Below, piece after piece: positions 43,776 to 62,298 of a stretch of DNA of 64,000 nucleotides; position 1 is the stretch's first letter, and every line of letters starts with the position of its first letter. Below the pieces are notes generated by a model. It saw nothing but the letters and a program-made list of their open reading frames with translations. It was not told the origin of the DNA and made no database searches. Origin of the DNA: an uncultured Candidatus Peribacteria bacterium (GTDB lineage Bacteria; Patescibacteriota; Gracilibacteria; Peribacterales; Peribacteraceae); NCBI GenBank assembly GCA_964358505.1, contig CAYHOS010000001.1, forward strand, positions 22,947 through 86,946. Direction: 5' to 3'. Made by a program: the position numbers and the translations under genes.

Positions 43776-43816
43776 AAACCGCCCCGCAGTCCCACAACCA
43801 CAGAACAGCATACATT

Positions 43817-43874
43817 CCCCTCTCCCGGGAGGGCGGAACGGTGGGGCGGACGGGAGAGGGGCTAGGGGTGAGGG
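43817..43874. repeat. GC-rich palindromic element, copy A (intergenic)
   Basis: CCCCTCTCCCG (43817-43827) pairs with CGGGAGAGGGG (43851-43861), followed by CTAGGGGTGAGGG. Confidence 0.75.
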
Positions 43875-43875
43875 C

Positions 43876-44967
43876 ATGAGGAGTGCCCTCATCACCGGAG
43901 GCGCGGGCTTCTTCGGCGAACTCCTCCTCAAACGGCTGCTCAAGGACGGCTGGCGCTGCGTGAGCATCGACCTGGAGGACCATGTCCTCTCGCACCCCAA
44001 CCTCACCGCTGTCAAAGGGGACATCCGCGACCTGCCCGCGCTCGAGCGGACGTTCGCGCAGGGCTCCTTCGGCTCCGCTCCCCTCGGCTCCGCTCGGGGT
44101 ATGCAACAGGACCTTCGGCCGTTCCACGCGGTCTTCCACCTCGCCTCCATCCTCGCCCACGCGGTGAAGGACAGGAACTTCCTCTGGACCTCCAACGTGG
44201 ACGGGACGAGGAACGTGGCGGAGATGACAAAGAAGTTCCGCATCCCCTCCCTGGTCTACACTTCCAGCAACTGCCTGTGGGGGCACGGCATGGGACGGTC
44301 GGTGCGCGAGGAGGACGAGCCCAAGCCCGTGGAGATCTACGGCAGGTCCAAGTGGGAAGGGGAGAAGATCCTGCGGGAATACGCGGGCGACTTCAACGCG
44401 GTAACCATCCGCTGCCCCACGATTGTGGATGAGGGAAGGCTGGGGCTGCTCGCCATCCTCTTCGCGTTCATCGACGAAGGGCGGAAGGTGTGGGTGGTGG
44501 GGGGAGGCAGGAACCGCTACCAATTCATTTACGCGCAGGATCTCATCGACGCCTGCCTGCGCGCCGTGGACTATGGACACTCGGACGTATTCAACATCGG
44601 CTCCGACGACGTGAAGACCTTCAGGGAAGTGTACGAGTACGTGATTCACCAAGCGGGGACAGGCGCCAGAGTTGCCTCCTTCCCGCGATGGATCGCCATC
44701 CCGCTCATGAAGCTCGCGTACGCCCTCGGGCTCTCGCCGCTCGGCCCCTACCAGTACAAGATGATCGCAGAGGACTTCGTGTTCGACACGGCGAAGATCA
44801 AGGGGAAGTTGGGGTGGAAGCCGACGCTGAAGAACGAGGACATGCTCGCCAGGTCCTACCGCTACTTCCATGATCACCGCAAGGAGATCGAAGGCCGTAC
44901 GAACGTGAGCGCCCACAAGCAGGCGGCGAAGATGGGGGTGATCAGGATCCTGAAGTGGCTGTCGTAG
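43876..44967 (+). CDS. NAD-dependent epimerase/dehydratase (SDR)
   Basis: 'ALITGGAGFFG' and 'YGRSKWEGE' (YxxxK). Carries an insertion of about 20 aa ('GSFGSAPLGSARGMQQDLRPF'). Confidence 0.8.
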   Translation: MRSALITGGAGFFGELLLKRLLKDGWRCVSIDLEDHVLSHPNLTAVKGDIRDLPALERTFAQGSFGSAPLGSARGMQQDLRPFHAVFHLASILAHAVKDRNFLWTSNVDGTRNVAEMTKKFRIPSLVYTSSNCLWGHGMGRSVREEDEPKPVEIYGRSKWEGEKILREYAGDFNAVTIRCPTIVDEGRLGLLAILFAFIDEGRKVWVVGGGRNRYQFIYAQDLIDACLRAVDYGHSDVFNIGSDDVKTFREVYEYVIHQAGTGARVASFPRWIAIPLMKLAYALGLSPLGPYQYKMIAEDFVFDTAKIKGKLGWKPTLKNEDMLARSYRYFHDHRKEIEGRTNVSAHKQAAKMGVIRILKWLS

Positions 44968-46744: not shown

Positions 46745-46750
46745 GGAAAG

Positions 46751-46756
46751 AGTGTA
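46751..46756 (-). promoter_or_regulatory. -10-like TACACT, 6 nt upstream of ATG 46744
   Basis: Recurrent pattern. Confidence 0.5.
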
Positions 46757-46766
46757 CGAGCTACAG

Positions 46767-46857
46767 CACCAAATCCCAAGCGCCAAGAACCAATACGATG
46801 AACAGATTGGTGCTTGGTGCTTGGTCCTTGGGATTTCACCGGGGACTTGGTGCTTCG
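46767..46857. repeat. TTGGTNN-heptamer imperfect palindrome, copy 1
   Basis: Left arm caccaaatcccaagcgccaagaaccaa, right arm ttggtgcttggtgcttggtccttgggattt. The outer 10 bp are perfect (46771-46780 with 46827-46836). Confidence 0.8.
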
Positions 46858-46885
46858 CCCAACGAATCGCTACCATGGTACTGCC

Positions 46886-47908
46886 GTGGATTATTCCCAG
46901 CTCCTCCAGTACGTCTTCAAGCGCTTCTCGGTGCTCAGCGCCTTCCGCACGGGGTTGCCCACCTTGGGGTACCACCTCACGCGCAGCCCCCTCCCTCCCG
47001 GTGAAAAGCCCGCGCTCTTCACCATGAACATCCTGCCGCCCATGATGACCGTGTGGCACCACCTGGTGAGGAAGAACCTGGGGAACCGCGTGGACACGGT
47101 GATTTTCGATTGCTCGGGAAGGCTCGACCCCGCGGCATTCCCGGGGGCGCGCGTGCAGAAGTACCTCAACCTCTACGCCGCCACGAAGAGCGACGAGTTC
47201 CTCTACCGCATCGCGCGCCACCGCCGCATCGGATGGATCTGCGACGATGACATGTTCATCATCCGCCCGGAAGCCGCGGACATCGTGGAACGGGAACTGG
47301 GCGTCCCCGGCACGGCGAGCGTGAGCTTCCGCCCCAGGGAATGGTGGCACTTCGAGATCGACGGGAAGCCATACCCCGTGAGCAGCAGTTACTCCATCGC
47401 CTTCAACAGGGAGATTGTCGTGGAGAGGGAACGCCTCTCCCTCAAGCCCGTGGACGGCAACACCCACCCCTCACACATCGGCAAGAAGGAGCGTCGGTAC
47501 GACACGGGGGACAAGGCGAACGAGATCCTCCTCCGCAAGGGCTACCGCTGCGCCATCGTGCCGGAGGTGGAACGCGAGAAGTACGTCACGGGTTTCAGCA
47601 GCATGAGCGGCGCAGTGATGCTCCTCTGGTACTTCCACAGGCCGGAACAGATGGAAGACTACCTGCTCACTCCGTCCAAAGACCGGTGGATGGGGAACGT
47701 GCTCTATGGGGTTCTCGCGGGACTCCTGGCCATCACCAGCGTCCAGGAATGCTACGAGCGCCTCAAGGGAAGGCCGTACCCCCTCCGCTCGCTCCCCTCG
47801 CGCTCCTCGCTGGAGAAGATCCGCCGGGAGCACGAGCCGCTCCTGCGGGAAGGCCATTCGTACCGTTGGGTGGATGAAGCGAGTGAACGCCTGCGTCATG
47901 CCCTGTAG
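46886..47908 (+). CDS. hypothetical protein, possible GT-A-fold glycosyltransferase (DDD motif)
   Basis: Strong third-position G/C bias from GTG 46886, with TACCAT 9 nt upstream. Contains 'ICDDDMFII'. Alternative ATG at 47024. Confidence 0.45.
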   Translation: MDYSQLLQYVFKRFSVLSAFRTGLPTLGYHLTRSPLPPGEKPALFTMNILPPMMTVWHHLVRKNLGNRVDTVIFDCSGRLDPAAFPGARVQKYLNLYAATKSDEFLYRIARHRRIGWICDDDMFIIRPEAADIVERELGVPGTASVSFRPREWWHFEIDGKPYPVSSSYSIAFNREIVVERERLSLKPVDGNTHPSHIGKKERRYDTGDKANEILLRKGYRCAIVPEVEREKYVTGFSSMSGAVMLLWYFHRPEQMEDYLLTPSKDRWMGNVLYGVLAGLLAITSVQECYERLKGRPYPLRSLPSRSSLEKIRREHEPLLREGHSYRWVDEASERLRHAL

Positions 47909-47946
47909 AACGACATGTTTCCCCGCCCCCTGTCCCCCTTCTCCCT

Positions 47947-48570
47947 ATGATCCAGCCACGCGCCACCCGAGGGACAGGACTGCTCGAAGGCTTCCTTGCG
48001 CGCCGGCGTGCGCTGATGGCGGGCCGCCTCCTCCCTCCCGCGCCCCGGGACGGTTGCGTCGTGGACATTGGTTGCGGCTCCCACCCGCTCTTCCTCCTCT
48101 CTGCGCCGTTCCGGAGGAACATCGGCCTGGACCGCGTGACGTCCCCCGCGATGGTGGAAGCGCTCCGGACGCAAGGCGTCGAGATGATCCATCATGACCT
48201 CGAGGCCGACGCAGCCCTCCCCCTGGCGGATTGCAGCGCGGATGCCGTGACGATGCTGGCGGTCATCGAGCATATCCCGCCGGAGAGGCGCGCGCGCCTG
48301 TTGCAGGACGCCCGCCGCGTCCTCAAGCCGGGCGGACGCGTGGTTCTCACGACCCCCGCCGCTTGGACCGTCTTCATCCTGCAGTTCCTGAGCAGGACGG
48401 GTTTCGTCAGCCACGAGGAGATCGAGGAACACCACGAACTCCTCAGCGGAAGAGGGCTCCGCCGCCTCCTCGAGGGCGCAGGATTTGGGAGGGTGCGCCG
48501 GGGATCGTTCGAGGCCGGCCTCAATCTGTGGGCAACGGGGGAACGCATGGAAGACGCGCCAGGAACGTGA
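47947..48570 (+). CDS. class I SAM-dependent methyltransferase
   Basis: 'VVDIGCGSHPL' and 'VTMLAVIEHIPPERR...LKPGGRVVLTTP'. Confidence 0.7.
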   Translation: MIQPRATRGTGLLEGFLARRRALMAGRLLPPAPRDGCVVDIGCGSHPLFLLSAPFRRNIGLDRVTSPAMVEALRTQGVEMIHHDLEADAALPLADCSADAVTMLAVIEHIPPERRARLLQDARRVLKPGGRVVLTTPAAWTVFILQFLSRTGFVSHEEIEEHHELLSGRGLRRLLEGAGFGRVRRGSFEAGLNLWATGERMEDAPGT

Positions 48571-49918
48571 CGGGAACGGCATCCGTCCGGAAGAGGATTG
48601 CCGCACCCGCAGGCGGCGACGGCGTGATGGCATAGAGGGGGCAGGACGCGCCGGCATCGGAAGTCACACGCATGTCGGGACGGAAGACGCCCGTGCGCCA
48701 CGTCGCAGCATGGAGATCCGGCTGGACGAGGACCCTGCTCCCCGGTTCGGCGATGCGGTTGAGTTCGTTCCGCGCCAGATCCCAGGCGTGGAATCCTTCG
48801 GTTGTGAGATGGAGGTCGGGGGGGATGAGGCCGATGGTCCGGTCGAACCAAGCATTGAAGGATCCGTACGCATAGACACCGAGGCCGAGCAGCTGTCCAC
48901 ACACGATGACCGCGACGAACGGGATACGCAGGAATTCCGGACGCAAGGCGCGGGCCGCGATGATCAAGCCGAAGGCCGCAAAACCGAAGAGAATGGGGTA
49001 TCCGGGCAGGGCGAAACGGGTGCCGAGCGTCCACCAGAAGGAAGTGAGTGCCCATCCCGCCAGCATGGAGAACACGAGGAACCACTGTTTCCGCCCCTCC
49101 TTCCAGAGCCCCAGGAGGGCAAAGGGGAAGAGGAAGAGGATGTTATGGAGGGGATTGGCGTAGTAGAGGGCATTGGTTACGAGCCGCGCGCCCAGGGGAT
49201 CATCCGCAGGCCAGAGGGCGAAGTATCCGCTATGGAGGGGATTGCCGAACGTGAGGGCGTTGCGCAGGAACCAGAGGGAGAACAGGAAGCCGCCGGCGGC
49301 CATCCCCCACCAGAACCAAGGGCTCCGGCGATGGCGCCCGCGGAAGAGGATGACGAAGAGAAACAGGGGGAAGAGCGGGGCGCCGTTGTAGCGCGTGAGG
49401 GAAGCGAGCCCCGCAAGCAGGCCGGCGGCAAGATAGAGCCTTGCATCGGCGGCGGCGCGCTGGAAAGCCGCAAGGGAGAGGAGGAAGAGGAAGAGGAAAG
49501 TGATATCAGAGGAAGCCACCATGATCTCGTACACGAAACCGTGGTGGAGGGTCAGGAAGGCCGATGCGGCCAAAGCCGTCGTTCGTCCGAACGGCTTCGC
49601 GAGCAGCGCGTAGGTCGCCAGTAGCCCTCCCCATCCCATGAAGAGGGCGGCGGTCTTCATCCCCGCGCCGTAGCCGAGCACTGCTGCGAAGGGGTAAGAG
49701 AGAATGGCATGAAGGGGAAGATGGGTGGCGTAGGGTACGCCGAAGAGCGCGTACGTTCCCGTCTTCCACACGCTCTCCCCCGTCAGCGCGTATATGGCGC
49801 TGTCACTGACGAGCGGATAGCGGAATCCCGGAAGGACCAGGAACGCCAGGAGAACACAGAGGCCGGCGAGCAGGAGGGGTACCTCACGCCCTTTCCATGA
49901 CGGAGACGGAAGCATCAT
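48521..49918 (-). CDS. GT-C glycosyltransferase (ArnT/PMT_2-like)
   Basis: First periplasmic loop is 'VSDSAIYALTGESVW', followed by more than 10 TM segments. Sits directly downstream of a GT2 polyprenol-P transferase. Confidence 0.65.
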   Translation of the reverse strand: MMLPSPSWKGREVPLLLAGLCVLLAFLVLPGFRYPLVSDSAIYALTGESVWKTGTYALFGVPYATHLPLHAILSYPFAAVLGYGAGMKTAALFMGWGGLLATYALLAKPFGRTTALAASAFLTLHHGFVYEIMVASSDITFLFLFLLSLAAFQRAAADARLYLAAGLLAGLASLTRYNGAPLFPLFLFVILFRGRHRRSPWFWWGMAAGGFLFSLWFLRNALTFGNPLHSGYFALWPADDPLGARLVTNALYYANPLHNILFLFPFALLGLWKEGRKQWFLVFSMLAGWALTSFWWTLGTRFALPGYPILFGFAAFGLIIAARALRPEFLRIPFVAVIVCGQLLGLGVYAYGSFNAWFDRTIGLIPPDLHLTTEGFHAWDLARNELNRIAEPGSRVLVQPDLHAATWRTGVFRPDMRVTSDAGASCPLYAITPSPPAGAAILFRTDAVPVTFLARLPCVPPLPTD

Positions 49919-50618
49919 CGGGGATGGGATGGAGGACGGAGATGCGGATCTTCAGGAAGACCCACATCCAACGGAACCAATCCTTCCAGCTGATCTTCTT
50001 CCCCTCCTCGATGGTACGGGGCGCGTACGAAATGGGGTACTCCGCAATGGGCACCTCGAAACGCGCGAGGAGCGCGGTGAGCTCGGGATCGAAACGGAAG
50101 TCGTTCTCCCGCAGCGGGATCATCTTGAGGAGGTCGGTCTGCACCATCTTGTAGCACGTCGGCTGGTCGGTGAGGCGCGTGCGGTACAGAACATTGCACG
50201 CGTACGTGAGCAGGGACCCCCCGATGAAGAAGAGGAGGTGCACGAACTGCTTCTGCTGCTTCAGCCGGCGGGAGCCGAACACGGCCGGCAGGTTCCGTGC
50301 CTCGGCGTACGAGAGCATGAGAGGGATCTCCTCTGGGCTGTACTCCAGGTCCGCGTCCTGCACGATGGTGTAGCGGCCCACGGCGTGCCCGTACCCCATG
50401 CGCACGGCGGACCCTTTGCCGCCGTTGGGTTTGCTCAGGACCGTGTCCCGCGGCAGCGCGCGCTCACGGAGAATCTGGAGTGAGCGATCCCGCGAGCCGT
50501 CATCCACGTAGATGACTTGCGCGAACCCGCATGCCTTCTGCAATCTCTCCATGATCACGGGCAAGGTCTTCTCCTCATTGTAGACGGGCACGACGATGGA
50601 GAGCCGGAGGCGATCCAT
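49884..50618 (-). CDS. GT2 polyprenol-phosphate glycosyltransferase (DPM1-like)
   Basis: 'SIVVPVYNEE', 'YVDDGSRD' and 'QDADLEY'. Internal ATG of ORF 49884..50702. Confidence 0.8.
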   Translation of the reverse strand: MDRLRLSIVVPVYNEEKTLPVIMERLQKACGFAQVIYVDDGSRDRSLQILRERALPRDTVLSKPNGGKGSAVRMGYGHAVGRYTIVQDADLEYSPEEIPLMLSYAEARNLPAVFGSRRLKQQKQFVHLLFFIGGSLLTYACNVLYRTRLTDQPTCYKMVQTDLLKMIPLRENDFRFDPELTALLARFEVPIAEYPISYAPRTIEEGKKISWKDWFRWMWVFLKIRISVLHPIPDDASVSVMERA

Positions 50619-50678
50619 GGCGGCTAGAGTAGCTGGTTGGGGCGGTGGCGTCACGGAGGAACGCGCAGAATACAGCAT

Positions 50679-50749
50679 CAAGTACCAAGTACCAAGTACC
50701 AAAACTCAAGAATCCTATTGGTCATTGGTTATTGGTGCTTGGTACTTCG
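50679..50749. repeat. TTGGTNN-heptamer imperfect palindrome, copy 2
   Basis: (CAAGTAC)x3 left arm faces ttggtcattggttattggtgcttggtacttcg. AAGTACCAAG (50680-50689) pairs with CTTGGTACTT (50738-50747). Confidence 0.8.
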
Positions 50750-51769
50750 TTGATCATCCCTCATCTCCTCCACCAACCTCCCCACTAGCCTCACAAGATT
50801 ATGGTGCGCGAGGACTTCCTGCCTCAGTACCTTCCCCAGCGCTTCCTTCTCCCCCTGAAGAAGATCGAGCATTGCCCGGACTTTCTCCCCGAAGTTCTCG
50901 TGCGTGGCCCGGCACTCCTCGGGGAGGAAGGGGCAGGAGGCTTCGGATGCCGATACCACGGGACATCCGCACGCCATCGCCTCCAGCAGCGCCTTATCCA
51001 ACCCCCCGCCCCCCGCATGGAGGTACAGTCCCGCTCGGCGGAGCAGGGGGAGGAGCTCCGCATGCGTGAGGAAAGTGATCGTGGTGCGGTCTTGCAGATT
51101 GTGGGCGGCGATGAACGCTTCCAGCTCCGTCCGGTACCGTTCATCTTCCGCCGTGATGACGCCGCCGGCGATGGAGAGGCGGTAGGGAGGGGGGAGGGCG
51201 GCGAGGAGTTGGAGGAAGAGCTCGTGCCGCTTGATGCGCGTCAGGCGCCCTACCGTGACGAGGAGGTGCGGGTCCCGCTCGGCGGGAAGGCCGGGCGAGA
51301 ACGTCCGGGTATCGATGCCGTGCCCCGTGACGACATTCTTGGGGGAGGGGAAGGGGAGGCCGTACGCCGTCGCGCTGAAGACTCTGCGGACGTGTCGCAG
51401 CGCGCAGCGCAGGACCCATCCGCCCCGGCGGATTTCGTACCACAGGTACACGGGCTTGCGGAGGAGGGGGAAGAGCGGCCAGCCGATCACCACCCAAATG
51501 GGCGTCATGTGGACGAACACCGCGTCGTACGCCCTGCGGTGTTTCCAGAGGAGGGAGAGGAAGCGGATGATCTGCGACATCTTCGACGCGCCCCGTTCCT
51601 TCCGGAGCGAGAGGATCCGGACATTCGGCGGAAAATGGTAATCGCCCGTCGCCTGCCCGATGACGGTGATCTGCTTGCAGTGCAGCGCGAACTCCTCGAT
51701 CCACCGGTGGAAGAACCCCAGGATGGGATCCTGCCGGTCCACCCGCTGCGTGATGATGAGGAGGTTCAT
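50729..51769 (-). CDS. GT-B (GT4-like) glycosyltransferase
   Basis: 'MNLLIITQRVD' and 'LDKALLEAMACGCPVV'. The last codons (STKHQ*) lie inside a TTGGTNN repeat. Confidence 0.65.
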   Translation of the reverse strand: MNLLIITQRVDRQDPILGFFHRWIEEFALHCKQITVIGQATGDYHFPPNVRILSLRKERGASKMSQIIRFLSLLWKHRRAYDAVFVHMTPIWVVIGWPLFPLLRKPVYLWYEIRRGGWVLRCALRHVRRVFSATAYGLPFPSPKNVVTGHGIDTRTFSPGLPAERDPHLLVTVGRLTRIKRHELFLQLLAALPPPYRLSIAGGVITAEDERYRTELEAFIAAHNLQDRTTITFLTHAELLPLLRRAGLYLHAGGGGLDKALLEAMACGCPVVSASEASCPFLPEECRATHENFGEKVRAMLDLLQGEKEALGKVLRQEVLAHHNLVRLVGRLVEEMRDDQRSTKHQ

Positions 51770-52917
51770 CGTTCGGAATAGCGTGCCTCCCCCTCTTCCT
51801 GGGGGAGAGGGGGTCGGGGGGTGAGGGACTGGAGGAATGCCGCATACCTTTCCAACGCCGCCCTCCTTTCAAACGTCCGTCCAACCTTTGCCGCCTCCTC
51901 TCCCAGTCTCCCGCAGAGGGAGGGGTCTTTGAGGAGAAGCCGGATGGCATCTGTGAGAGACGACGCTTCCATCGCAATGAGGCTCCCGCTCTCGCCATCG
52001 CGGATCACGTCCGGCATCACCCCCACGCGCGTCGCAATCACGGGAAGCCCCGCGGCCATCGCTTCCAACGCCACGCGCGGCCCCCCCTCGCTGCGGGAAT
52101 TCATGACGAAGACCCGCGCCGATTGCAGCGCGCGCGCCACATCCTCCTGCGCAGGCAGCCACCCGGCGAACGTCACCCGGGCGGAGAGTCCCCACGCCCG
52201 GACGCGACGCTCGCAGTCAGCGCGCAGGGGGCCGTCCCCCACCACGAGAAGGGAGACGCCCGGCAGCGAACGGAGGGCACGGAGGAGTTCCACCAAGCCC
52301 TTGTTCGCCACCAGGCGCCCGCAGAAGGCCAGGTCGTAGCGCTTGGTGACGCGCGGGTCCGGCCGCCAGAGCGAGGTCTCGATGTAGAAGGAGGGGACGA
52401 GGCGGAGCTTCTCCCGCGGCACCCCCCACCGATGGAGGAGGCTGCGCGCTTCCCCGCTCACCACGCGCACGGCGGCGGCCGAGCGCGCCTCGAGCGGGAG
52501 GAAGAGGCGCGAGAGAAAGCGGCCAGCCCACTCGGCGGGGGAGGAAGGCCTGGGATACCCGACGACGTGGTGGACCTCCAGCGCATACGGCACGTCCGTG
52601 GCGCGGTGGAGCCGCAGCGCGCCGAGCCCGTTATAGAAGGGGGGATACTCATGCACCGTCATGGCGTCATGCCCGTAGAGGCCGGCGAGCTCGCGCCCCT
52701 TCCGTACAATCCACCGCGGCTGCAGGGGTAGCGGCCAGGGCGAGGGGTGGAGGAACGTGTGGGGGAACGGCGCAAGGGTGACGGGGCGGGCGGCGGCGTG
52801 TGGGCAGATGACGTCGATGCGCTCGAAGTGCTCGCGCAGGATCTCCAACGTGTACCAGAACGCGCTCTTCTTCCCTTGGGAAAGCGAACGATCGCCGGAA
52901 ATCATCAAGAGTTTCAT
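51766..52917 (-). CDS. GT4-family glycosyltransferase
   Basis: 'MKLLMISGD', 'GRLVANKG' and 'NSRSEGGPRVALEAMAAGLPVIAT'. ATGA overlaps at both ends. The C-terminal tail is encoded by a GC-rich palindrome. Confidence 0.75.
   Translation of the reverse strand: MKLLMISGDRSLSQGKKSAFWYTLEILREHFERIDVICPHAAARPVTLAPFPHTFLHPSPWPLPLQPRWIVRKGRELAGLYGHDAMTVHEYPPFYNGLGALRLHRATDVPYALEVHHVVGYPRPSSPAEWAGRFLSRLFLPLEARSAAAVRVVSGEARSLLHRWGVPREKLRLVPSFYIETSLWRPDPRVTKRYDLAFCGRLVANKGLVELLRALRSLPGVSLLVVGDGPLRADCERRVRAWGLSARVTFAGWLPAQEDVARALQSARVFVMNSRSEGGPRVALEAMAAGLPVIATRVGVMPDVIRDGESGSLIAMEASSLTDAIRLLLKDPSLCGRLGEEAAKVGRTFERRAALERYAAFLQSLTPRPPLPQEEGEARYSER
51787..51827. repeat. GC-rich palindromic element, copy B (3' end of GT4 gene)
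   Basis: cctccccctcttcctgggggagaggggg followed by TCGGGGGGTGAGGG. Encodes the 'TPRPPLPQEEGE' tail. Confidence 0.75.
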
Positions 52918-53993
52918 AGTAACGCTTGGAACAACGCCCGATGCTCCCTTGCTACATCTTCCCACGAGCGCTTCTGGAACGGAGAAGCCGATTTCTGGGC
53001 GATGACCTCGTAATGGTGCTCCGCCTCCAGCACGGCGCGGGTGATTTCTTCCGTGGTACGGAGCGGGGCGACAATCATGCCATCGCGCAGCTCGTCCCCC
53101 AGCCCCGTTTCCGCGGTGAGGAGGACGGGGAGGCCGTGCGAGCGCGCCTCCAGCGCGGCATGCGGGCTGATCTCCGTGAGGGACGGGATGATGAGGAGGT
53201 CATGCTCGCGCAGCGTCTTCTCCTTCTCCTCCCCGTGCACCGGGGGCAGGAACGTGAGGCGCCCCTTGAGGCGCAGCTTCTGCGCCAGCTGCGAGAGCTC
53301 GCGCGAGGCCGGGCCCTCCCCCTGCAACGTGAGCGTGACATGCGGCAGGTTGGCGACGGCGCGGAGGAGGGGGCGGAGGTTCTTGAACCGCACGAAGCGC
53401 CCGAGGAAGAGGAGGCGGAACGGCTCATGCCGCACATGGAGCAGCAGTTCCCCGTGGGGCAGCGCGTTCTCGATCACCGAGTGGCGCGGCAGACGGGGAT
53501 AGACGCGCTTGTAGAGTTGTTCCTGGAACCAGGTGGAGAAGACCACGTGGTCGAAGCTCCGCAGGATGCGCCCCAGGATGGCCATGGCGGGCGGACGCGC
53601 CGCGTACCACTGGCTCAGCGTCTTCTTGCCGCGCAGGTCCGTGTACCGCTCCCACAGGAAATCGCCTCCCAGCCGCAAGATCTTCTTGGGCTTCTTGAGC
53701 CGCGCCATCATGAGAGGCACCCCCACGCTCACCGCGGAGAAGCCGTACACGATGTCCGCGTCCTTCGCCTCCCGTTTGAGCGCGCGGGCGAAGCGCCACC
53801 AGCGGAGCAGGGGGCCGCGGCGGGAAACCGTGACCACCTTCCAAGGAACTTCCTCCACGGGGCCGCGCGGCGCGTAGGCGACCACCGTCACCTGCTCGTC
53901 CATCTCCATGAGACGCCGCGCGATGTTCTTCACGTACGTGGCGGGGCCGCCGATGGTGGGGGGATACACGCCGGTAGCGAGGATGATTTTCAT
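52914..53993 (-). CDS. GT4-family glycosyltransferase
   Basis: 'MKIILATGVYPPTIGGPATY' and 'PSLTEISPHAALEARSHGLPVL'. Confidence 0.7.
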   Translation of the reverse strand: MKIILATGVYPPTIGGPATYVKNIARRLMEMDEQVTVVAYAPRGPVEEVPWKVVTVSRRGPLLRWWRFARALKREAKDADIVYGFSAVSVGVPLMMARLKKPKKILRLGGDFLWERYTDLRGKKTLSQWYAARPPAMAILGRILRSFDHVVFSTWFQEQLYKRVYPRLPRHSVIENALPHGELLLHVRHEPFRLLFLGRFVRFKNLRPLLRAVANLPHVTLTLQGEGPASRELSQLAQKLRLKGRLTFLPPVHGEEKEKTLREHDLLIIPSLTEISPHAALEARSHGLPVLLTAETGLGDELRDGMIVAPLRTTEEITRAVLEAEHHYEVIAQKSASPFQKRSWEDVAREHRALFQALL

Positions 53994-54007
53994 AGGAAGA
54001 GGAGTAA

Positions 54008-54086
54008 GAATGACCAATACCCAATGACCAATGCTCTGGTTATTTCGTTTGATGATTGGCCATTGGTGCTTGGTGCTTGGTCATTC
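54008..54086. repeat. TTGGTNN-heptamer imperfect palindrome, copy 3
   Basis: gaatgaccaatacccaatgaccaatg faces attggccattggtgcttggtgcttggtcattc. Outer GAATGACCAA/TTGGTCATTC pairing is perfect. Confidence 0.8.
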
Positions 54087-55020
54087 GATCCCGATACCAC
54101 TCCACCGTCTTCTTCAGTCCCTCTTCAAAAGCCACGGACGGCTTCCACCCCAGTTTCCGCAACGGCGTGGAATCCAGCGCGTAACGCCAATCATGGCCGG
54201 GGCGGTCGGGGACGGACGTGAGCAGGCTCTCGGGCTTGCCCAGGATTGTAAGGACCATTGCCGCCACGTCCCGGTTCCGGCGCTCCTCATTGGCGGAGAC
54301 GTGATAGACGGAATCGGAGCCGTTGGGGAGGCGGAGGACCATCTCCAGCGCGTCGCAGTGGTCGGTGACGTAGAGCCAATCCCGCTTGTTCTTCCCCGCG
54401 GCATAGATGGGGACGGGCTCGCCCTTGAGGGCATGGCGGATGACGGTGGGGATGAACTTCTCCCCCGCCTGGTGGGGGCCGTAGTTGTTGGTGCAGCGCG
54501 CAATGCGGACGTGCAGGCCGTACGTGCGCGCGGCGGCGAGGAGGAGCAAATCGCCGGAAGCCTTGCTGGCCGCATAGGGGGAGCTGGGGCGCAGGGGATC
54601 CGCGGGATCCTTGGGCTTGTCCTTGTCCCGCAGGTCTCCGTACACCTCGTCGGTGGAGATGTGGAAGAGGAGGACCTTAGGATGGAGCTTGCACGCCTCC
54701 ACCAGGCTCTGCACGCCAAGCACGTTGGTGTGGAGGAAGGGGACAGCGCTCTGGATGCTGCGGTCCACGTGCGTCTCGGCGGCGAAGTTGACGATGGCCT
54801 CGATCCCGTACCGCTCCAGAAGCTGAGAGACGAGCTCAAAGTCCACGATGTCCCCCTGCACGAAGCGGATGCGGTTGAGAACGGGGTCCAGGTACGTCTT
54901 GTCCGCCGCGTACGTGAGCTTGTCGAGGACAATCACCGTGTCCTCCGGATGCCGCTCGATGTGCCGCAGCACGAAGTGCGAGCCGATGAATCCCGCCCCG
55001 CCGGTAACAAGGAGGTTCAT
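54040..55020 (-). CDS. rfbB: dTDP-glucose 4,6-dehydratase
   Basis: 'LVTGGAGFIGSH' and 'YAASKASGDLL'. TATACT lies 6 nt upstream of ATG 55020. The last 14 codons lie in a TTGGTNN repeat. Confidence 0.85.
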   Translation of the reverse strand: MNLLVTGGAGFIGSHFVLRHIERHPEDTVIVLDKLTYAADKTYLDPVLNRIRFVQGDIVDFELVSQLLERYGIEAIVNFAAETHVDRSIQSAVPFLHTNVLGVQSLVEACKLHPKVLLFHISTDEVYGDLRDKDKPKDPADPLRPSSPYAASKASGDLLLLAAARTYGLHVRIARCTNNYGPHQAGEKFIPTVIRHALKGEPVPIYAAGKNKRDWLYVTDHCDALEMVLRLPNGSDSVYHVSANEERRNRDVAAMVLTILGKPESLLTSVPDRPGHDWRYALDSTPLRKLGWKPSVAFEEGLKKTVEWYRDRMTKHQAPMANHQTK

Positions 55021-55026
55021 GGGAGC

Positions 55027-55032
55027 AGTATA
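55027..55032 (-). promoter_or_regulatory. -10-like TATACT, 6 nt upstream of rfbB ATG 55020
   Basis: Recurrent pattern. Confidence 0.5.
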
Positions 55033-55057
55033 GAGCATGGAAGGGGTATGGAGGGGT

Positions 55058-55122
55058 GGGTATTGAGTAGCGAGGAAACGGCCTATTCATACTCAATACG
55101 CAATACTCTATACTCAATACCC
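55058..55122. repeat. rfbB/rfbA intergenic palindrome and TACTCAATAC direct repeats
   Basis: GGGTATTGAGTA (55058-55069) is the exact reverse complement of TACTCAATACCC (55111-55122). TACTCAATAC is repeated at 55090 and 55111. Confidence 0.75.
55109..55114 (+). promoter_or_regulatory. -10-like TATACT, 10 nt upstream of rfbA ATG 55125
   Basis: Recurrent pattern. Confidence 0.4.
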
Positions 55123-55124
55123 TT

Positions 55125-55925
55125 ATGAAAGGCGTCCTCATCTGCGGCGGCACCGGCTCGCGCCTACGCCCCCTCACGGAGGTGACGAACAAGAGCCTCC
55201 TCCCCGTCTACGACCAGCCGCTCGTGCTCTACCCCTTGCAGGTGCTTCTCGAGGCACGGATCCGTGACATCATCATTATTACGGGGAACGAGCACATGGA
55301 CCAGATGGCGGGCTTCCTGGGAAGCGGGCAGCGCTTCGACTGCCGCTTCAGTTACCGCGTGCAGGACACGGCGGGCGGCATTGCGCAAGCGCTGGGCATG
55401 GCGGAGGAGTTCGCGGCCGGCGACGATGTGTGCGCCATGTTGGGGGACAACATATTCTTCGATTCCCTTGCCCCTTTCATCCAATCCTTCAAGGGGGGCG
55501 GCCATGTGTTCCTCAAGCAAGTCTCCGATGCGCGGCGGTTCGGCGTTGCGGAGATCGAGCGCGGCCATGGGAAGGACACTATCTCCGTCGTCTCCATTGA
55601 GGAGAAGCCGCGCAGGCCCAAGTCCGACTTCGCCGTGACGGGATGCTACATCTACGACAACCGCTGCTTCGACATCATCCGCGCCCTCAAGCCCTCGGGA
55701 CGGGGCGAGCTGGAGATCACGGACTTGAGCAAGGCGTACATGGAGATGGGCTTGCTACGCGCCACCATTCTCAAAGACGAGTGGATCGACGCGGGAACGT
55801 TCGAGAGCCTGTTCCGCGCGGCGACGGTCGTCCGGCAACGCACGCTGGATGCGGCGGAGAAGGCAACGACGGCGATCGCTCGCAAGCAACCGCAGAAGCC
55901 CAGGCGGGCTGCCGCCCGGTGGTGA
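55125..55925 (+). CDS. rfbA: glucose-1-phosphate thymidylyltransferase-type sugar nucleotidyltransferase
   Basis: 'ICGGTGSRLRPLT' G-loop, 'GGIAQAL' and 'EKP' motifs. Divergent from rfbB. Confidence 0.75.
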   Translation: MKGVLICGGTGSRLRPLTEVTNKSLLPVYDQPLVLYPLQVLLEARIRDIIIITGNEHMDQMAGFLGSGQRFDCRFSYRVQDTAGGIAQALGMAEEFAAGDDVCAMLGDNIFFDSLAPFIQSFKGGGHVFLKQVSDARRFGVAEIERGHGKDTISVVSIEEKPRRPKSDFAVTGCYIYDNRCFDIIRALKPSGRGELEITDLSKAYMEMGLLRATILKDEWIDAGTFESLFRAATVVRQRTLDAAEKATTAIARKQPQKPRRAAARW

Positions 55926-56373
55926 TCACACAGGTAAGATATCCTCATACATCTCCCCATACCTCCCCGCAATCTCCCCCCAATCGTACTTCTTCGCATT
56001 CTCCACGCCCGCCGCCGAGAGCTTTTGACGCAAACCGGAGTCGTTGAGCAGCGTGCCGATTGCCTCCGCCGCCGCCTTGGGGTCATCCGGCGGGACGAGG
56101 AGACCGGTGACGCCGTCATGGACTACGTCGGGGATGCCGCCCACGTTCGTCGCCACCACGGCGCATCCCGCCGCCTGCGCTTCCAGGAAAACGTTCCCCA
56201 GCGCCTCGCTGCGCGAGAGGCCGACGAAGATTTCCGCTTCCGCGTACTCCTCGTGGATATCGGGGAAGGGGATGAACCCCCGGAACGTCCCCTCGGGGAG
56301 GAAGGAGCGGGATTGCATTTCCAATAATCTCCGCCGGCTTCCATCACCGACAATATGAATGTCAGGAGGAACG

Positions 56374-56418
56374 CCCCTCTCCCCCTGGGAGAGGGGGGGG
56401 GGGGGGGGGGCCCCCCCC
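56374..56418. repeat. GC-rich palindromic element, copy D, fused to G18C8 homopolymer
   Basis: CCCCTCTCC-ccctg-GGAGAGGGG, then G-run 56393-56410 (18 nt) and C-run 56411-56418 (8 nt). Confidence 0.85.
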
Positions 56419-56873
56419 ACAGCAGATGGAGCGCCTGCAGCAACGTATCCACTCCCTTCATCGGTTCCAAACGTCCGGCGAAGAGGATGCGTCCCGGAAC
56501 TTTCTGGATCCTTCCGCAGGTCTCGCGGATGGACGCGTACGGTACCCCGTTGGGTATATGGCGGACGTCCTTGCGGCCGTAATGTTCCGAACGTGTGACG
56601 AGCGTCCTGCTGATGGCCGTGAGCGCGTGGGCGGAGCGGTACATGAGCGAGAGCAGGAACGACGTGTTCGTGCTCTGCTGCGTGAGCACGCGCTTGGCGC
56701 GGGGGACGATGAAGCGGCAGAGGACCAAGGCCAGCCCCGCGTAGGACTCCAGCACGGCATGGATGGCCTGCGGCTTGATCCTGCGGACCACAAACGGCGC
56801 AAGAAAGGGAAAGAGCCACTTGTCCCATGGGATTCCCAAGCCAACACGTATGACCTCGACATCACGATGCCCC

Positions 56874-56892
56874 CCTCCCCCCCCGGGGGAGG
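56874..56892. repeat. GC-rich palindrome CCTCCCCC-ccc-GGGGGAGG inside GT4 domain 2
   Basis: Read directly from the sequence. Contains an 8-nt C run and is translated in-frame as 'SSPGGGGGH'. Confidence 0.7.
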
Positions 56893-57624
56893 AGCCGAGG
56901 GAGAGGGAATCACGCCGGGGCAAATCACGACGTAACTTTGCCGTGACAATGGTGAACTCATACGTTTCCTTCAGTGCCTTCGGCACCTCCTCCGCGCACG
57001 CCTCCGCCCCGCTGCGGAAGGGGGTGAGGAAAGCCGAGAGGATGACGATACGGTGCATCTCCAATGTTGCATTCTTCTCCACTTCAAACAACTGCCGATA
57101 CGCGCGCCCAACCACGTCCCAGCTGAACACCTGCCCTATCCGTTGCCGCGCCGCTTCCCCCAAGGACTTCCGCTTGGCGGGATCGGCGATCAGCCGGCGG
57201 ATGTGCGCGGCGAGCGCTTGCCTGTCACCAGGAGGGAAAAGGAAGCCGGCCTGCCGGCCGTAGTCCCCCGATGGGGAGCGAAGGCCGGAGATGCCGTTCT
57301 GGAGGAGGAAGCCGTTGCCGCCCACGTCGCTCGCCACGCACGCGCAGCCGGACGCCATGGCTTCCATGAGTGCGTTCGAAAGGCCTTCGCTGTGGGAGGG
57401 GAGGACGAAGATATCCGTACCGGAGAGGATGGCGGGGATATCATCCCGAAGGCCGGTGAACGTCACTTGGTCCATATAGCGCAGGACGAGAGGATTGCCT
57501 TTCTTGAACCAACCGACAACCTGGATATGCAAAGGAGGGATCTCCTCCTTGATCGGCACCGCCGCGGCGAGGAAGTCCTCCACGCCTTTCACGGACTCCA
57601 ACCGCCCAATATACGTCACGGTCA

Positions 57625-57655
57625 ATTGGTCATTGGTGCTTGGGAATTGGTGCTT
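57625..57655. repeat. TTGGTNN-heptamer half-element inside GT4 coding sequence
   Basis: attggtcattggtgcttgggaattggtgctt, translated in-frame as 'GKHQFPSTNDQ'. Confidence 0.6.
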
Positions 57656-58106
57656 CCCGTAGGGCGCAGGATCAATCCCCGTAGGAATGACCGTCGTCTT
57701 CCGCGCAATCATCAGCTTTCTCAGGAGCGCGGGCGGCTGCGGATGGAACGTAACCACGCGGTCGGCGAGCAGGAGGAGCAGCCAACCCAGCGTCCATGCA
57801 TACAGGAAAGCGCCGAGCTTCGGCAGCCGGCCCCGCGGCCACCACGTGATGCCCACGAGCGCATCGGTGAGGAGGAGGAACTTCCGGCCGGCGAGCCGGA
57901 GGCGGATGCCCGCGAGCGACGTCCAGAAGAGGAGCTTGTTGATGACGATGCGGTCGGGCTTTTCCTCCTTCACAATCTTCCCTACGAACCGTGCGAAGCC
58001 GAAGGCGATGCCGTAGTTCCAGGGATCCTTGAGGAAGATGTCGCGCATCCTGTATATGGTGAGAGTATCGGAGACCTTCTCTACGTGCGTGCGCCCTATG
58101 GCCTCG

Positions 58107-58156
58107 CTCCCCCCTCTCCCCTCGGGGGAGGGGTCGGGGGTGGGGGGGCAGGGGGG
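58107..58156. repeat. GC-rich palindromic element, copy C (in-frame in GT4 domain 1)
   Basis: ctcccccctctcccctcgggggagggg followed by TCGGGGGTGGGGG and further G-runs. Encodes 'PPCPPTPDPSPEGRGGS'. Confidence 0.75.
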
Positions 58157-58295
58157 ACGAGGTCCCATGCAAACAACAACGACCCTATACCCCAACCTCT
58201 GCCACAATTCCGCCAGCTTCACCGAACTCACCATCCAGCGATGATGTTCCTTCCAGTACGGTGAGATGAGGAGGATGGTCTTCATAGCATGAACC

Positions 58296-58372
58296 GAATG
58301 ACCAAGGACCAATACCCAATGACCAATGCCCGGCGACGTTTGGTCATTGGTGCTTGGTCATTGGTGCTTTGG
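58296..58372. repeat. TTGGTNN-heptamer imperfect palindrome, copy 4
   Basis: gaatgaccaaggaccaatacccaatgaccaatg faces tttggtcattggtgcttggtcattggtgctttgg. The left arm is nearly identical to copy 3. Confidence 0.8.
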
Positions 58373-58727
58373 ATTGTCCTTCGGATGCTTCCGCCAACCC
58401 CGCCTCCCTCAACGCAAGATGCCGCACCAGCTTCGCATACTTCTGCTCCAGCTCCTCCAGCCGGATCACCAGGTAGAACACCATAAAGAAGAGGACGCCC
58501 AGGAACGTGACGATCACGGCGTTCTCCTGGTTCTCAATCCCCGTGATCGCGGAGAGGTACGAGAGGAGGTTGGGGTACAGCGCTACGATGGAAATGGCGC
58601 CCCAGAAGAGCGTCCACAAGCCCGCTTCCAGCACGCTCTTCCTCCGGCGCAGCACCAGGTTCCACGCGTAGAACACGGCGACGGCGGAGATGAGGGGGGT
58701 GATGATTTGGTAGGGCGTAAGGCGCAT
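58344..58727 (-). CDS. DUF2304-family small membrane protein
   Basis: Three TM segments plus a C-terminal 'RLEELEQKYAKLVRHLAL' helix. Downstream of a GT2, the usual partner of this family. Confidence 0.65.
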   Translation of the reverse strand: MRLTPYQIITPLISAVAVFYAWNLVLRRRKSVLEAGLWTLFWGAISIVALYPNLLSYLSAITGIENQENAVIVTFLGVLFFMVFYLVIRLEELEQKYAKLVRHLALREAGLAEASEGQSKAPMTKHQ

Positions 58728-58770
58728 GTGCCCATCATAGCGAAGAAAGGAGGTTGTGCCATACGACACG

Positions 58771-59460
58771 TCACCGGAGGAATGAACGGAGCAGGATCTT
58801 CAAGGCCGTCTTCACGCCGTTCGCGAAGGACTGCCCCTTGGCCATGGTGTACTCCGAGTAGATCACCTTGGTGGGCACCTCCGCCACGCGCCATCGGCGC
58901 GCCGCGGCCTCCCGCACGATCTCCGTGCAGAACTCGAAGCCGCTCATGCGCAGGTCGATCTCCTCCAGTGCCCTCTTGCCCAGCACCTTGAACCCCGACT
59001 GGCTGTCACTCACCCACTTACCCGCGGCGAGGAGGGTGAGGACGTTCCCGATGGCGTTGAAGAGGCGCCGGATGAAAGGGATGCGGTTGCGCCGCTTGCC
59101 CTGCATGATGAGGAAGGGGCCGAACCGGTTGGAGAAGACGATGTCGGCCGTGCCGTCCCGGATGGGCCGGAGGAGGGAGGGGATGTCCCGGGGGTCGTGC
59201 TGCCCGTCCGCGTCCAGCGTAACCACAGCGTCCGCCCCCAGCCTCCGCGCCGCCTCGATGCCGGTCATGGTGGCCGCCCCAGCCCCGCAGTTCTGGTGGT
59301 GCCGTAGCACGCGGGCGCCCCCTGCTTCCGCCGCCTCCGCCGTACCGTCATCCGAACCGTCGTCCACCACCACGACGGCATCCGTCACCTTCCGCGCGTC
59401 CGCCACCACCTGCGCGATGCGCTTGGCTTCGTTGAACGCCGGAATGACCGCGATGAGCAT
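58771..59460 (-). CDS. GT2-family glycosyltransferase (polyprenol-phosphate type)
   Basis: 'AVIPAFNEA', 'VVDDGSDD' and 'LDADGQH'. Confidence 0.8.
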   Translation of the reverse strand: MLIAVIPAFNEAKRIAQVVADARKVTDAVVVVDDGSDDGTAEAAEAGGARVLRHHQNCGAGAATMTGIEAARRLGADAVVTLDADGQHDPRDIPSLLRPIRDGTADIVFSNRFGPFLIMQGKRRNRIPFIRRLFNAIGNVLTLLAAGKWVSDSQSGFKVLGKRALEEIDLRMSGFEFCTEIVREAAARRWRVAEVPTKVIYSEYTMAKGQSFANGVKTALKILLRSFLR

Positions 59461-59466
59461 GGGGTG

Positions 59467-62298
59467 CTACGGGATGAGGATGAACGCCACGCCCTGGCCG
59501 GCGTCGCTGATGACCACCTGCAGGCCGAGGGAGGGGTTATTGAGAAAATCCACGAACGCCTGCGCCTTCTTGTGCAGCGACCCTTCCGAATCCTTCTCGA
59601 TGGTGGCCGTGTTCGTGTCGAAGACGATGCTGTTGAAGCCCAACGCCTTGAGGCGCTTGAGCGTGAGCTGCGGATCCCGCTCCTGGTTGAGGCAATTGAA
59701 GTTGTCGAGCTGGTGGTCGGTGATGCCGATGATCTCCAGGTTCTTGGGGATGAAGTAGGTGATGAAGGTCCCCACGCGGTACAGGTACGGGCGGTCGGGC
59801 ATGGTCTCATGCCGCTGCACCACGACGTCGCGGATCTGGTCATAGTAGGGGATGGTGCGGATCCGCAGCGTATCGGCGTCCACCTTGCCGAACGGGTACT
59901 CCAGCAGGTTCCTCTGCTGCTCGAACTGCCAGAAGCGCATACCGAACGCAATGATGAGCGAGAACGCAACGAGCGTTACGGCTGCCCCCCGGTTGAGCAC
60001 GTCCGGCGCGCGGGCAACAAGCGCCTCCAGGGCGATCGCCAATCCCAGGAATACGCCGATGCCGTACCACGGGATGCCGTTGGCCAGGAACATCCACTGC
60101 ACGAGGAGGACCGACGTCGTGAGGAAAAGCCAGCGCAGCCACCTTCCCTTCCTCATCCAAAAGGCAGGGAGGAGGAGGAGGAGCGGGAAGAGGAGGAGGG
60201 CGGGAATAGTGGTGACGTAGTACCCCGCGGAGTCGATGTTCATCACCGAGCGCCAGGGGAGGGTGAAGTAGTGGCCCCATCCCCTGCGGAACCCCCAGTA
60301 CCGGTCCAGTTCTTCCACGCCACCGGTCGGCTGGCAGGCGGTATTGTTCGGGTCCAGCTTCAGCTCCGGCGGGAGCGATTTCACCACCTGGCCGGGCAAT
60401 CCCCCCCCGTAGCCCTTCACGTCGATCACGGGCGTGAGCGTATTGGGCAGGCCGAACGCGAGGCGGGGAATGATGCGGCCTTGCTGGAAGTTGTTGTTGA
60501 GGATCCACGGCGCCACGGCAATGCCGATGCCCGCGATAAAGGCCAGCAGGGCACCGACGGCGGGTTTGCTCCTCCCGCGGAGCTGGAGGAACAGGACGAA
60601 GAAGAAGACGGCGGCAAGAGACAAGAGGAGCCAGGGGACACCCGCCATGAGCCATGCCTGGGGCGTGCCGCCCAACCGCTCCACGAGCCGCTGGATATTC
60701 AGTCCGCCGAGACGCGCGAAGGCGAACATGACGAGGAATAGGGATCCCGCGAATCCCGCCCAGTGCGCAAAGCCCAGGATGACCGTCACGATCGCCATGA
60801 CCACCATGGCCGCCGTGGCCTTGGTGGCGAACGCGAAGCCCGCGAACAGGCCCGCGAGCGCCGGCCACTGCCACCCTTGAGCCAGGAACACCTTCCAGGA
60901 AGGGGAAGCAGGAGCCTCCGGTGGCGATTCCTCCGCGTCCGCGGGGAAGAACCGGACGAACGCCGCGTACATGGCGAGCGCGCCGAACGCGAACACCGCG
61001 TTGTCCACCTTCATGTCCGCGAAGGAAAAATGCCCCACGAGGGGGAGGCTGTAGTAGAGGAGGGCGGCGAGGAAGCCCGTTCCTTTTCCCAAATACGTTC
61101 GGGCGAAGAGGACGACGGCGAGCACCGCCAGTACGCCCGCCGCCCAGTTGACCATCATGGAAGCGATGGCGCCGAAGATGCTGTCGTACCCGAAGAGCAG
61201 GAACCCGAGCGACGTGAGGTACTCCCATTGGAACGGCGCCATGGAATGGATCAAGTGCCCGTAGCTCACGAGCAGGCGCGGGCGATTCAAGTAGCTTCCC
61301 AGGTCATCCCACCCGATGGGGAACGGCCGGACGACGGTGAGGAAGTTGAGGGCAAGGTAGCTGAGGAGCAGCCAGAGGAGCAGGGCGCCCGCGCTGTGCC
61401 ACGGATAGTCCATGTCGTACGCCTTGATGAAGAACGTGCGGGCCCAGTGCACGCTCTGGCGGTAGAGGAGGATGGGGAGGCCTATCGCCAGCGCCCACCC
61501 AAGCGGGGCGCGGAAGATGCCGAATACCGCCAGGAGCCACAGCATGGCGATCCAGCCGCACGCCCCCAGCCCCGCGCTGAGCGCGAATTCCTGGAGGTCA
61601 TCCTTCACGGGGGCCCGGAAGAGCCGCAGGAGGAACTTGCCGAGGACGAGGAACTCGAAGAGGAGAGCCAGGACAAACAGGATTTGCGGCACGGCCCGCG
61701 TGAGGAACCCTCCTTGCACGCATACCCCCTTCATCCTGTAGATTTTGATGCCGCTAGTGCTCTCGCCCAGAAGCGTTAGACATCCCCGGTCCTGGAGATC
61801 GTTGAAATTCTCCTTGAGGGCGTTGAGCGCGCGCTCGCCGATGTCCCCGTACGCCTGCGCGGTGGGTTCTACCATCTGCAGCGCGGGTACATCGCCGGAT
61901 GTCCCCATGCTCAACGTGGTGAAGAGCAGCCACGCGCACGCCACGAAGAACGCGAGGATCTGCCACTGCTTCCAGCGCATCTGCAGGCGGAACTGCCCCG
62001 TCTTCACGCCCTGCCACCCCACGAAAAGCAGGTAACCGATGAGGGAGAGGATGGCGTACGCAAGGAAGGGGGACGCGCGCCCGAACGTGTGGGAGAGGAA
62101 GGGGAAGAAGCCGTTGAAGCCGCGGCAGATGTACCCTCCCCCGGGGCATGCCGCGCTCACCTCATTCTGCGCCGCATCGGAGAAGAGGACCATGCCGTGC
62201 ACCTCCACACCGAGGTAGGAAAGAAGGCCGTACCCCCCCCACAGGAGTAGGGCGGCAAAGAGCGCGATGGAGAGGATTTGCACCGTTCGTTGCTTCAT
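59467..62298 (-). CDS. large (943 aa) polytopic membrane protein, possible GT-C glycosyltransferase
   Basis: Internal ATG 62298 ('MKQRTVQILSIALF'). About 20 hydrophobic segments and a C-terminal soluble domain. Confidence 0.5.
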   Translation of the reverse strand: MKQRTVQILSIALFAALLLWGGYGLLSYLGVEVHGMVLFSDAAQNEVSAACPGGGYICRGFNGFFPFLSHTFGRASPFLAYAILSLIGYLLFVGWQGVKTGQFRLQMRWKQWQILAFFVACAWLLFTTLSMGTSGDVPALQMVEPTAQAYGDIGERALNALKENFNDLQDRGCLTLLGESTSGIKIYRMKGVCVQGGFLTRAVPQILFVLALLFEFLVLGKFLLRLFRAPVKDDLQEFALSAGLGACGWIAMLWLLAVFGIFRAPLGWALAIGLPILLYRQSVHWARTFFIKAYDMDYPWHSAGALLLWLLLSYLALNFLTVVRPFPIGWDDLGSYLNRPRLLVSYGHLIHSMAPFQWEYLTSLGFLLFGYDSIFGAIASMMVNWAAGVLAVLAVVLFARTYLGKGTGFLAALLYYSLPLVGHFSFADMKVDNAVFAFGALAMYAAFVRFFPADAEESPPEAPASPSWKVFLAQGWQWPALAGLFAGFAFATKATAAMVVMAIVTVILGFAHWAGFAGSLFLVMFAFARLGGLNIQRLVERLGGTPQAWLMAGVPWLLLSLAAVFFFVLFLQLRGRSKPAVGALLAFIAGIGIAVAPWILNNNFQQGRIIPRLAFGLPNTLTPVIDVKGYGGGLPGQVVKSLPPELKLDPNNTACQPTGGVEELDRYWGFRRGWGHYFTLPWRSVMNIDSAGYYVTTIPALLLFPLLLLLPAFWMRKGRWLRWLFLTTSVLLVQWMFLANGIPWYGIGVFLGLAIALEALVARAPDVLNRGAAVTLVAFSLIIAFGMRFWQFEQQRNLLEYPFGKVDADTLRIRTIPYYDQIRDVVVQRHETMPDRPYLYRVGTFITYFIPKNLEIIGITDHQLDNFNCLNQERDPQLTLKRLKALGFNSIVFDTNTATIEKDSEGSLHKKAQAFVDFLNNPSLGLQVVISDAGQGVAFILIP

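Follow-up and report, generated by a model that had tools for sequence, protein, structure and literature searches.

A G18C8 tract in a double-GT4 glycosyltransferase gene of Peribacteria is probably an artefact at a hairpin/G-quadruplex repeat rather than a phase-variation switch

Does the G18C8 tract that interrupts a glycosyltransferase gene of a Peribacteria bacterium act as a slipped-strand contingency switch, as the preliminary description of this DNA had proposed, or does it stem from an error of sequencing or assembly, which was the caveat attached to that proposal? The tract is certainly present in the window, by which we mean the whole 64-kb stretch of DNA that was analysed. Direct reading of its + strand shows the left flank ...CCTGGGAGAG (in a wider form, ...AACGCCCCTCTCCCCCTGGGAGAG) ending at the start of a run of 18 G, followed by eight C and then by ACAGCAG (right flank, ACAGCAGATGG), as had been described; on the coding (minus) strand the order is G8 and then C18. 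This is the sole G or C run longer than 8 nt in the window, the runners-up being G7 and C8. At the composition of the window (64% G+C), about 6e-5 G runs of at least 18 nt are expected in 64 kb, and the length of G18 is far beyond chance. The positions of the tract and of the other features discussed here are collected in Table 1.

The interrupted gene carries two complete GT4 units, and the tract was thus correctly placed in a second GT4 domain: both units pass the Pfam thresholds for Glyco_transf_4 (N-terminal) and Glycos_transf_1 (C-terminal), unit 2 once it is repaired. On the 5' side of the tract, the peptide ...KGVDTLLQALHLLWGGPPPPPP (longer form, ...GRLEPMKGVDTLLQALHLLWGGPPPPPP) is encoded in the frame of ORF 56123..58312, and on its 3' side LSQGERGVPPDIHIVGDG...FLEAQAAGCAVVATNVGG...ILPV* is encoded in the frame of ORF 55926..56828. 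The downstream frame is offset by +2, so that the addition of one nucleotide or the removal of two joins the halves; translation confirmed both this repair and the assignment of the two frames, which were already part of the preliminary description. The rejoined unit 2 is a complete GT4 with Glyco_transf_4 and Glycos_transf_1 domains (E 1e-31 to 5e-33), and matches group-1 glycosyltransferase models at 5e-33 and 1e-31. The tract is located in a variable loop of unit 2, between GRLEPMKGVDTLLQALHLL and IHIVGDG. The conserved EX7E region (SRSEALGNVFLEAQAAG; E285 and E293 are invariant in the alignment of homologues) is downstream of the tract, in the shifted frame, and this downstream frame is intact: it includes the most conserved part of the family, and the gene contains no other inactivating changes. 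As it stands in the window, the gene would give truncated products of 720 aa and 300 aa, the upstream frame meeting a premature stop codon after the shift; a look-up of the two products found no record of either.

One protein retrieved by a database search, P0005, is 99% identical to the repaired unit 2. At the position of the tract this protein reads LLQALHLL-FPHPQP-LSQGERGVPPDIHIV, in frame, and the window reads LLWGGPPPPPP/LSQGERG. The contig that encodes P0005 (L001; 1,135 nt; ENA ERZ1292635, Hain_H43_02um_R3) equals the window at every base outside the tract. With exact matches to the adjacent proteins (RmlA, GT2 and GT4) serving as anchors, further sister contigs were retrieved, which come from other replicate filters: NODE_3415 of ERZ1292638 (12.4 kb), and R1_10414 (6.4 kb) and R1_10684 of ERZ1292640. 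The three sister assemblies, ERZ1292635, ERZ1292638 and ERZ1292640, are replicate metagenomes from the Hainich groundwater well H43, and their contigs jointly span positions 48586-61195 of the window (12.6 kb). Apart from the tract, the sequences differ only by one singleton SNP per assembly (55057 T/G; 54830 A/C at a contig end) and by one 10-N scaffold gap in a sister contig, and by sequence identity the sisters and the window represent essentially the same strain. The data for the sisters were obtained on NextSeq 500 with 2x150 reads, trimmed with BBDuk and assembled with metaSPAdes, poly-G trimming being absent from the description (PMC8672522). Each filter replicate was sequenced and assembled on its own (PMC8672522), and the three sisters are therefore independent observations of one strain. 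Their coverage is low, 3-5x, and all three resolved the tract site. The 10-N gap, in R1_10684 (L008) at window position 50363, brings in 16 extra bases and splits a GT2 gene into two calls; it is an example of a scaffolding artefact in the same family of assemblies.

At the tract site, three of three sisters read GGGAGAGGGG-TTGGGGGTGAGGGA-ACAGCAG (full string, GGGAGAGGGGTTGGGGGTGAGGGAACAGCAG) and contain no homopolymer, whereas the window reads GGGAGAGGGG-GGGGGGGGGGGGGG-CCCCCCCC-ACAGCAG. Relative to the sisters, the window has G in place of T56397, T56398, T56404, A56406 and A56410, which are all five of the native non-G positions within G18, and eight inserted C (CCCCCCCC). Since G18 is collinear with the native 18 nt, GGGGTTGGGGGTGAGGGA, the frameshift is due entirely to the extra 8 nt (+8 nt = +2 mod 3), i.e., to the C8 insertion and not to G18. 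When the 22 nt of the window are swapped for the native 14 nt, the sister protein is obtained exactly; gene calling in the sisters yields one 783-aa protein that contains both GT4 units. In other Peribacteria species a stop codon keeps the two units apart as individual genes, and here the two adjoining genes are fused into one 783-aa ORF (junction ...FEVEKNATLE/MHRIVILSAF, ATG at 57058). The fusion is identical across the three sister assemblies; it looks real in the sampled population and is mildly interesting.

Table 1. Features of the window mentioned in the text (positions count from the first nucleotide of the window).
Feature	Position	Strand	Remarks
Long-loop element copy	43818..43874	+	just upstream of an SDR epimerase/dehydratase gene
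Canonical element copy, tail TCGGGGGGTGAGGG	51787..51827	+	codes for the last ~18 aa of GT4 ORF 51766..52965
RmlA-like glucose-1-phosphate thymidylyltransferase	55125..55925	+	convergent with the GT4 gene; anchor for sister contigs
Double-GT4 glycosyltransferase gene	55926..58285	-	783 aa, intact in sisters; interrupted by the tract here
GT4 unit 2	55926..57058	-	ATG at 57058, MHRIVILSAF...
Premature TAG met by the upstream frame after the shift	56123..56125	-	
Hairpin of the repeat element	56374..56396	+	CCCCTCTCCC, 3-nt loop, GGGAGAGGGG
G18 run (C18 on the coding minus strand)	56393..56410	+	collinear with the native 18 nt, equal length
C8 run (G8 on the coding strand)	56411..56418	+	missing from three of three sister assemblies
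Degenerate element copy	56865..56907	+	in frame, N-terminal domain of unit 2 (peptide ...SLSLGSSPGGGGGH...)
GT4 unit 1 (Glyco_transf_4 + Glycos_transf_1)	57059..58285	-	separate gene in other Peribacteria species
Element copy	58105..58160	+	in frame, GT4 unit 1 (peptide ...PPCPPTPDPSPEGRGGSEA...); identical in sisters

The native site represents, in typical form, a small GC-rich repeat composed of a hairpin and a G-quadruplex-type tail. The family is recognized by the arms CCCCTCTCCC and GGGAGAGGGG, separated by a loop, and by the G-rich tail GGGGGTGAGGG, the copy at the tract spanning 56374-56410. The native hairpin of this copy has 10-11 bp (DNA MFE of -12.1 kcal/mol) and is followed by 2-3 nt and then by a GGGGG(G)TGAGGG tail; its right arm and tail together, GGGAGAGGGGTTGGGGGTGAGGG, make up a canonical short-loop G-quadruplex motif. 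Seven such motifs are present in the window, and four of them belong to the repeat element. There are 5 copies of the element in the window, and a relaxed pattern found 24 more in 560 kb of orthologous loci from 80 Peribacteria species (L014, L030, L041, L044, L045, L050, L051, L059 and L070 are among the loci with copies). Many of these 24 copies are inside long ORFs, at the same GT4 loops, and encode SPSP...GE(R)G-type peptides; in-frame copies add ~10-14 residues to the variable loops of GT4 proteins. The tail of the copy in unit 1 contains G7 and G6 runs (58137-58160), and the C8 run of the degenerate copy within the unit 2 N-terminal domain (at 56877) is genuine and is the same in the sisters. 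Among the ~29 copies of the element (5 from the window and 24 from related loci), no G run longer than 8 nt was found, and G18 is an outlier within the family, the sister version being typical and in agreement with the family consensus. In the orthologues from the 80 Peribacteria species, the unit 2 loop is in frame, with an insert of 30 to 68 aa, and the longest G/C run in it is at most 5 nt in 77 species, 6 nt in two and 8 nt in one. A related species (L011/L013) has a longer insert in this loop (SSAPPLPSPPTTVPPMPSPGGGGGPP) with a genuine in-frame C5G8 palindrome, meaning that short G/C runs are natural variants of the element. An insertion in the orthologues, suspected from long (~1.6 kb) tblastn matches in many species, was rejected: these matches merely extend into the C-terminal domain of the upstream paralogue.

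The search of positions 43000-59000 against Rfam families gave no match at E <= 1. The element resembles Rickettsia palindromic elements (RPEs) and REP/MITE-like elements in being short, multicopy and palindromic and in residing in frame in protein-coding genes; as palindromic elements do, it lengthens the variable surface loops of proteins, and orthologues from other species carry it at the same positions. On the other hand, at 35-55 nt it is much shorter than the RPEs (~100-150 nt), and it differs from them in its extreme GC-richness, in its G-quadruplex-type tail and in its CPR host, its mobility being a candidate property. A family of in-frame hairpin/G-quadruplex elements in glycosyltransferase loops of Peribacteria appears real and is of modest interest.

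The surroundings of the gene are those of a glycosylation locus. The homologues of unit 2, which belong to Candidatus Peribacteraceae/Peregrinibacteria (CPR), are GT4 proteins of ~350 aa that stand alone, and the gene order is conserved in relatives: a PMT_2-like membrane protein, GT2, DUF2304, GT4, GT4, RmlA (convergent) and RmlB, beyond which three further GT4-type genes and one GT2 gene follow in the same syntenic order. The preliminary description also held that the locus makes pseudaminic acid (Pse), a statement that holds in a loose sense only. Pse genes do exist in the window: PseC and a PseG/PseH-like fusion are encoded at 19083-23544, and PseC and PseG score above curated cut-offs, with a PseH-like domain, WbuX and WbuZ also there (16.4-24.2 kb). 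They are, however, 33 kb away from the tract, whose immediate neighbours are RmlA and RmlB. The pseudaminic-acid-type sugar cluster as a whole (16396-24239) consists of a WbuX amidotransferase, a WbuZ/HisF-like protein, PseC, an oxidoreductase, a cytidylyltransferase, the 496-aa PseG-PseH-like fusion and a formyltransferase-like protein, and suggests that this CPR bacterium makes a nonulosonic acid with an acetamidino or formyl modification. The gene boundaries of the glycosylation cluster bear, in addition, intergenic repeats that are built on heptamers and are in part palindromic (TTGGTCATTGGTGC / CAAGTAC and their complements; 50679-50736, 54009-54081 and 58297-58369), which translate as 'MTKHQ...'-type tails in mechanical ORFs and could be terminator-like or REP-like elements.

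With the native sequence at hand, the proposed switch can be weighed against the other explanations. If G18C8 were a real hypermutable homopolymer, it would turn GT4 unit 2 ON and OFF by slipped-strand mispairing, and the assembly would have captured an OFF length. G/C tracts in glycosylation genes are the classical mechanism of this kind in Campylobacter (PMC8355987), and the tract shares several features with the poly-G/C loci of Campylobacter jejuni (also of Neisseria and Haemophilus), which are flagellin-glycosylation, capsule and LOS glycosyltransferase genes: the run (G18 + C8, each at least 8 nt) is within the ORF of a surface-glycan glycosyltransferase, a one-unit change would toggle the frame and a gain of one or loss of two nucleotides gives a complete conserved GT4, there are no other disabling mutations, and a Pse-type sugar cluster is present within the same 64 kb. 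In contrast to the C. jejuni loci, the tract is missing from near-identical genomes (the three assemblies that match over 12.6 kb carry TTGGGGGTGAGGGA instead) and from every orthologue, the unit 2 loop being devoid of G/C runs longer than 8 nt in 80 species. The window, for all its glycosyltransferase genes, lacks the further G/C tracts of at least 9 nt that the preliminary description suggested searching for; in contingency genomes such tracts are numerous (PMC8355987). The 18 nt of the G run, with an adjoining complementary 8-nt run, are also far longer than the usual G9-G10 at which mutational biases hold the C. jejuni tracts (PMC8355987). Public protein data contain no frameshifted or alternative-length product: the frameshifted tail has no match among 5.8 billion protein clusters, and there are no alternative-length versions among the hits to the repaired protein. 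A pattern made of both flanks with N{8,38} between them had no match in GTDB genome and JGI metagenome contigs, which means that the population, with either version of the site, is absent from those collections. The literature search found no paper tying phase variation to Patescibacteria, and the host is a CPR bacterium without documented phase variation. Slipped-strand mispairing lengthens or shortens, by whole units, a repeat that is already there, but can neither turn T or A into G nor add a run of the complementary base. It therefore cannot yield the difference between the window and the sisters, which consists of five substitutions to G and an 8-nt C insertion and not of repeat units. 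The slipped-strand contingency switch is thus not supported, there being no homopolymer in the three near-identical assemblies and no repeat-unit variation between the alleles, and we consider it very unlikely. Its more specific form, in which G18C8 is real and arose when the G-quadruplex tail of the repeat element collapsed into a hypermutable homopolymer that switches half of the double glycosyltransferase ON and OFF, is a trifle less likely still; if true, it would give Patescibacteria their first described contingency locus, one that originated in a repeat element.

It is instead probable that G18C8 is a sequencing or assembly artefact private to this assembly and not a property of the organism. 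The caveat of the preliminary description is in this sense the best-supported reading, given three independent assemblies with an in-frame 14-nt sequence, and the true sequence at 56397-56418 is most likely, as judged from the sisters, the 14 nt of TTGGGGGTGAGGGA, i.e., the G-rich tail of the element, which lies in frame within a unit 2 surface loop. The tract is not only lacking from separately sequenced assemblies but also differs from their version in a way that is not slippage; the native version fits the element consensus, no copy of the element has a G run longer than 8 nt, the gene has no other inactivating change, and the frameshifted tail is without a match in the protein clusters. 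The pattern seen in the consensus (as distinct from reads) has a direction as well. Going 5' to 3' into the site, the + strand reads ...GGGAGAGGGG and then G14, with five of five substitutions being changes to G, and the minus strand reads ...CATCTGCTGT (...CTGCTGT) and then G8, which starts exactly where the G-rich template begins. In two-colour Illumina chemistry, a cluster that gives no signal is called as G, and the resulting poly-G tails are a known artefact (PMC6129281). G-quadruplexes lower the quality of Illumina reads from the start of the G-quadruplex onwards through polymerase stalling and phasing (PMC8516911), and the native site, a hairpin followed by a short-loop G-quadruplex, is a context of this kind. 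The simplest and most likely mechanism would be that reads converging on the site from both sides lost their signal: G would have been called at each of the five non-G positions of the tail, eight extra C would have been joined on, and a G(n)C(m) patch would have formed where reads of opposite direction, each with a poly-G tail, were merged, the joining step being the more conjectural one. At the level of the consensus, the tract is similar to the poly-G tails of NextSeq and NovaSeq reads (those trimmed by fastp) in that each miscalled base is G on the strand read and both strands decay to G towards the site, and the sister data of the population do come from NextSeq 500. It is dissimilar in that such tails normally occur at read or contig ends, while the run here is internal and fused to poly-C. 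We do not put the artefact higher than probable because simple de Bruijn logic does not account for a join of poly-G and poly-C inside a contig, three assemblies at 3-5x got the site right, so that it is not systematically unreadable and a higher coverage should hold correct reads, and in standard Illumina buffers G-quadruplexes usually lower quality without miscalls (PMC8516911). The other copies of the repeat element in the window were, moreover, assembled correctly.

Some of these same points would favour a real lesion private to the sub-population sampled by this assembly, in which one recent complex mutation converted the 14-nt tail to G14C8 and GT4 unit 2 was lost, leaving a very young pseudogene or null allele. 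The contig is long (at least 64 kb) and presumably well covered, and should outvote sporadic bad reads; the site gave three low-coverage assemblies no difficulty; the loop accommodates inserts that differ widely from one species to another (30 to 68 aa), and related elements have genuine short runs, such as the C8 at 56877 and the C5G8 of L011/L013. No known mutational process, however, leads from TTGGGGGTGAGGGA to G14C8, as there is neither a local template nor a pre-existing run. Such a lesion would also have concentrated five substitutions, all five of them to G, and an 8-nt insertion in 22 nt of a 12.6-kb stretch that otherwise has no more than 2 SNPs, and the G18C8 allele was found nowhere else in public data by the flank-pattern and protein-cluster searches. 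We regard this lesion as unlikely. Alternatively, misassembly at the repeat could have produced a chimaeric patch from a copy of the element that truly has long G/C runs and is located elsewhere in the genome or community. The element does occur repeatedly, with 5 copies in the window and a further 24 in related loci; these copies have almost the same hairpin core, and the tail of one of them contains G7 and G6 runs. Against a patch of this origin, the gene runs on through both flanks of the tract with nothing lost or duplicated, G18 lines up base for base with the native 18 nt, and runs longer than 8 nt are absent from all ~29 copies examined, which leaves it a very slim chance. Three further candidates were rejected outright. 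An error of a long-read-only assembly does not agree with the lack of any other indel relative to the Illumina contigs over 12.6 kb; a fold-back (inverted) chimaera would have the flank repeated in inverted orientation behind the G run, and not C8 followed by the correct flank; and a template-switch or quasi-palindrome mutation has no local template for G14.

The main value of this result is that of a correction, and as a biological finding the tract ranks low. For scans of metagenome-assembled genomes for contingency loci it carries a caution: extreme G/C runs at hairpin/G-quadruplex repeats should be checked against independent assemblies or reads first. For the Peribacteria population considered here, it means that the gene is to be annotated as an intact 783-aa double-GT4 glycosyltransferase and not as a pseudogene or a phase-variable gene.
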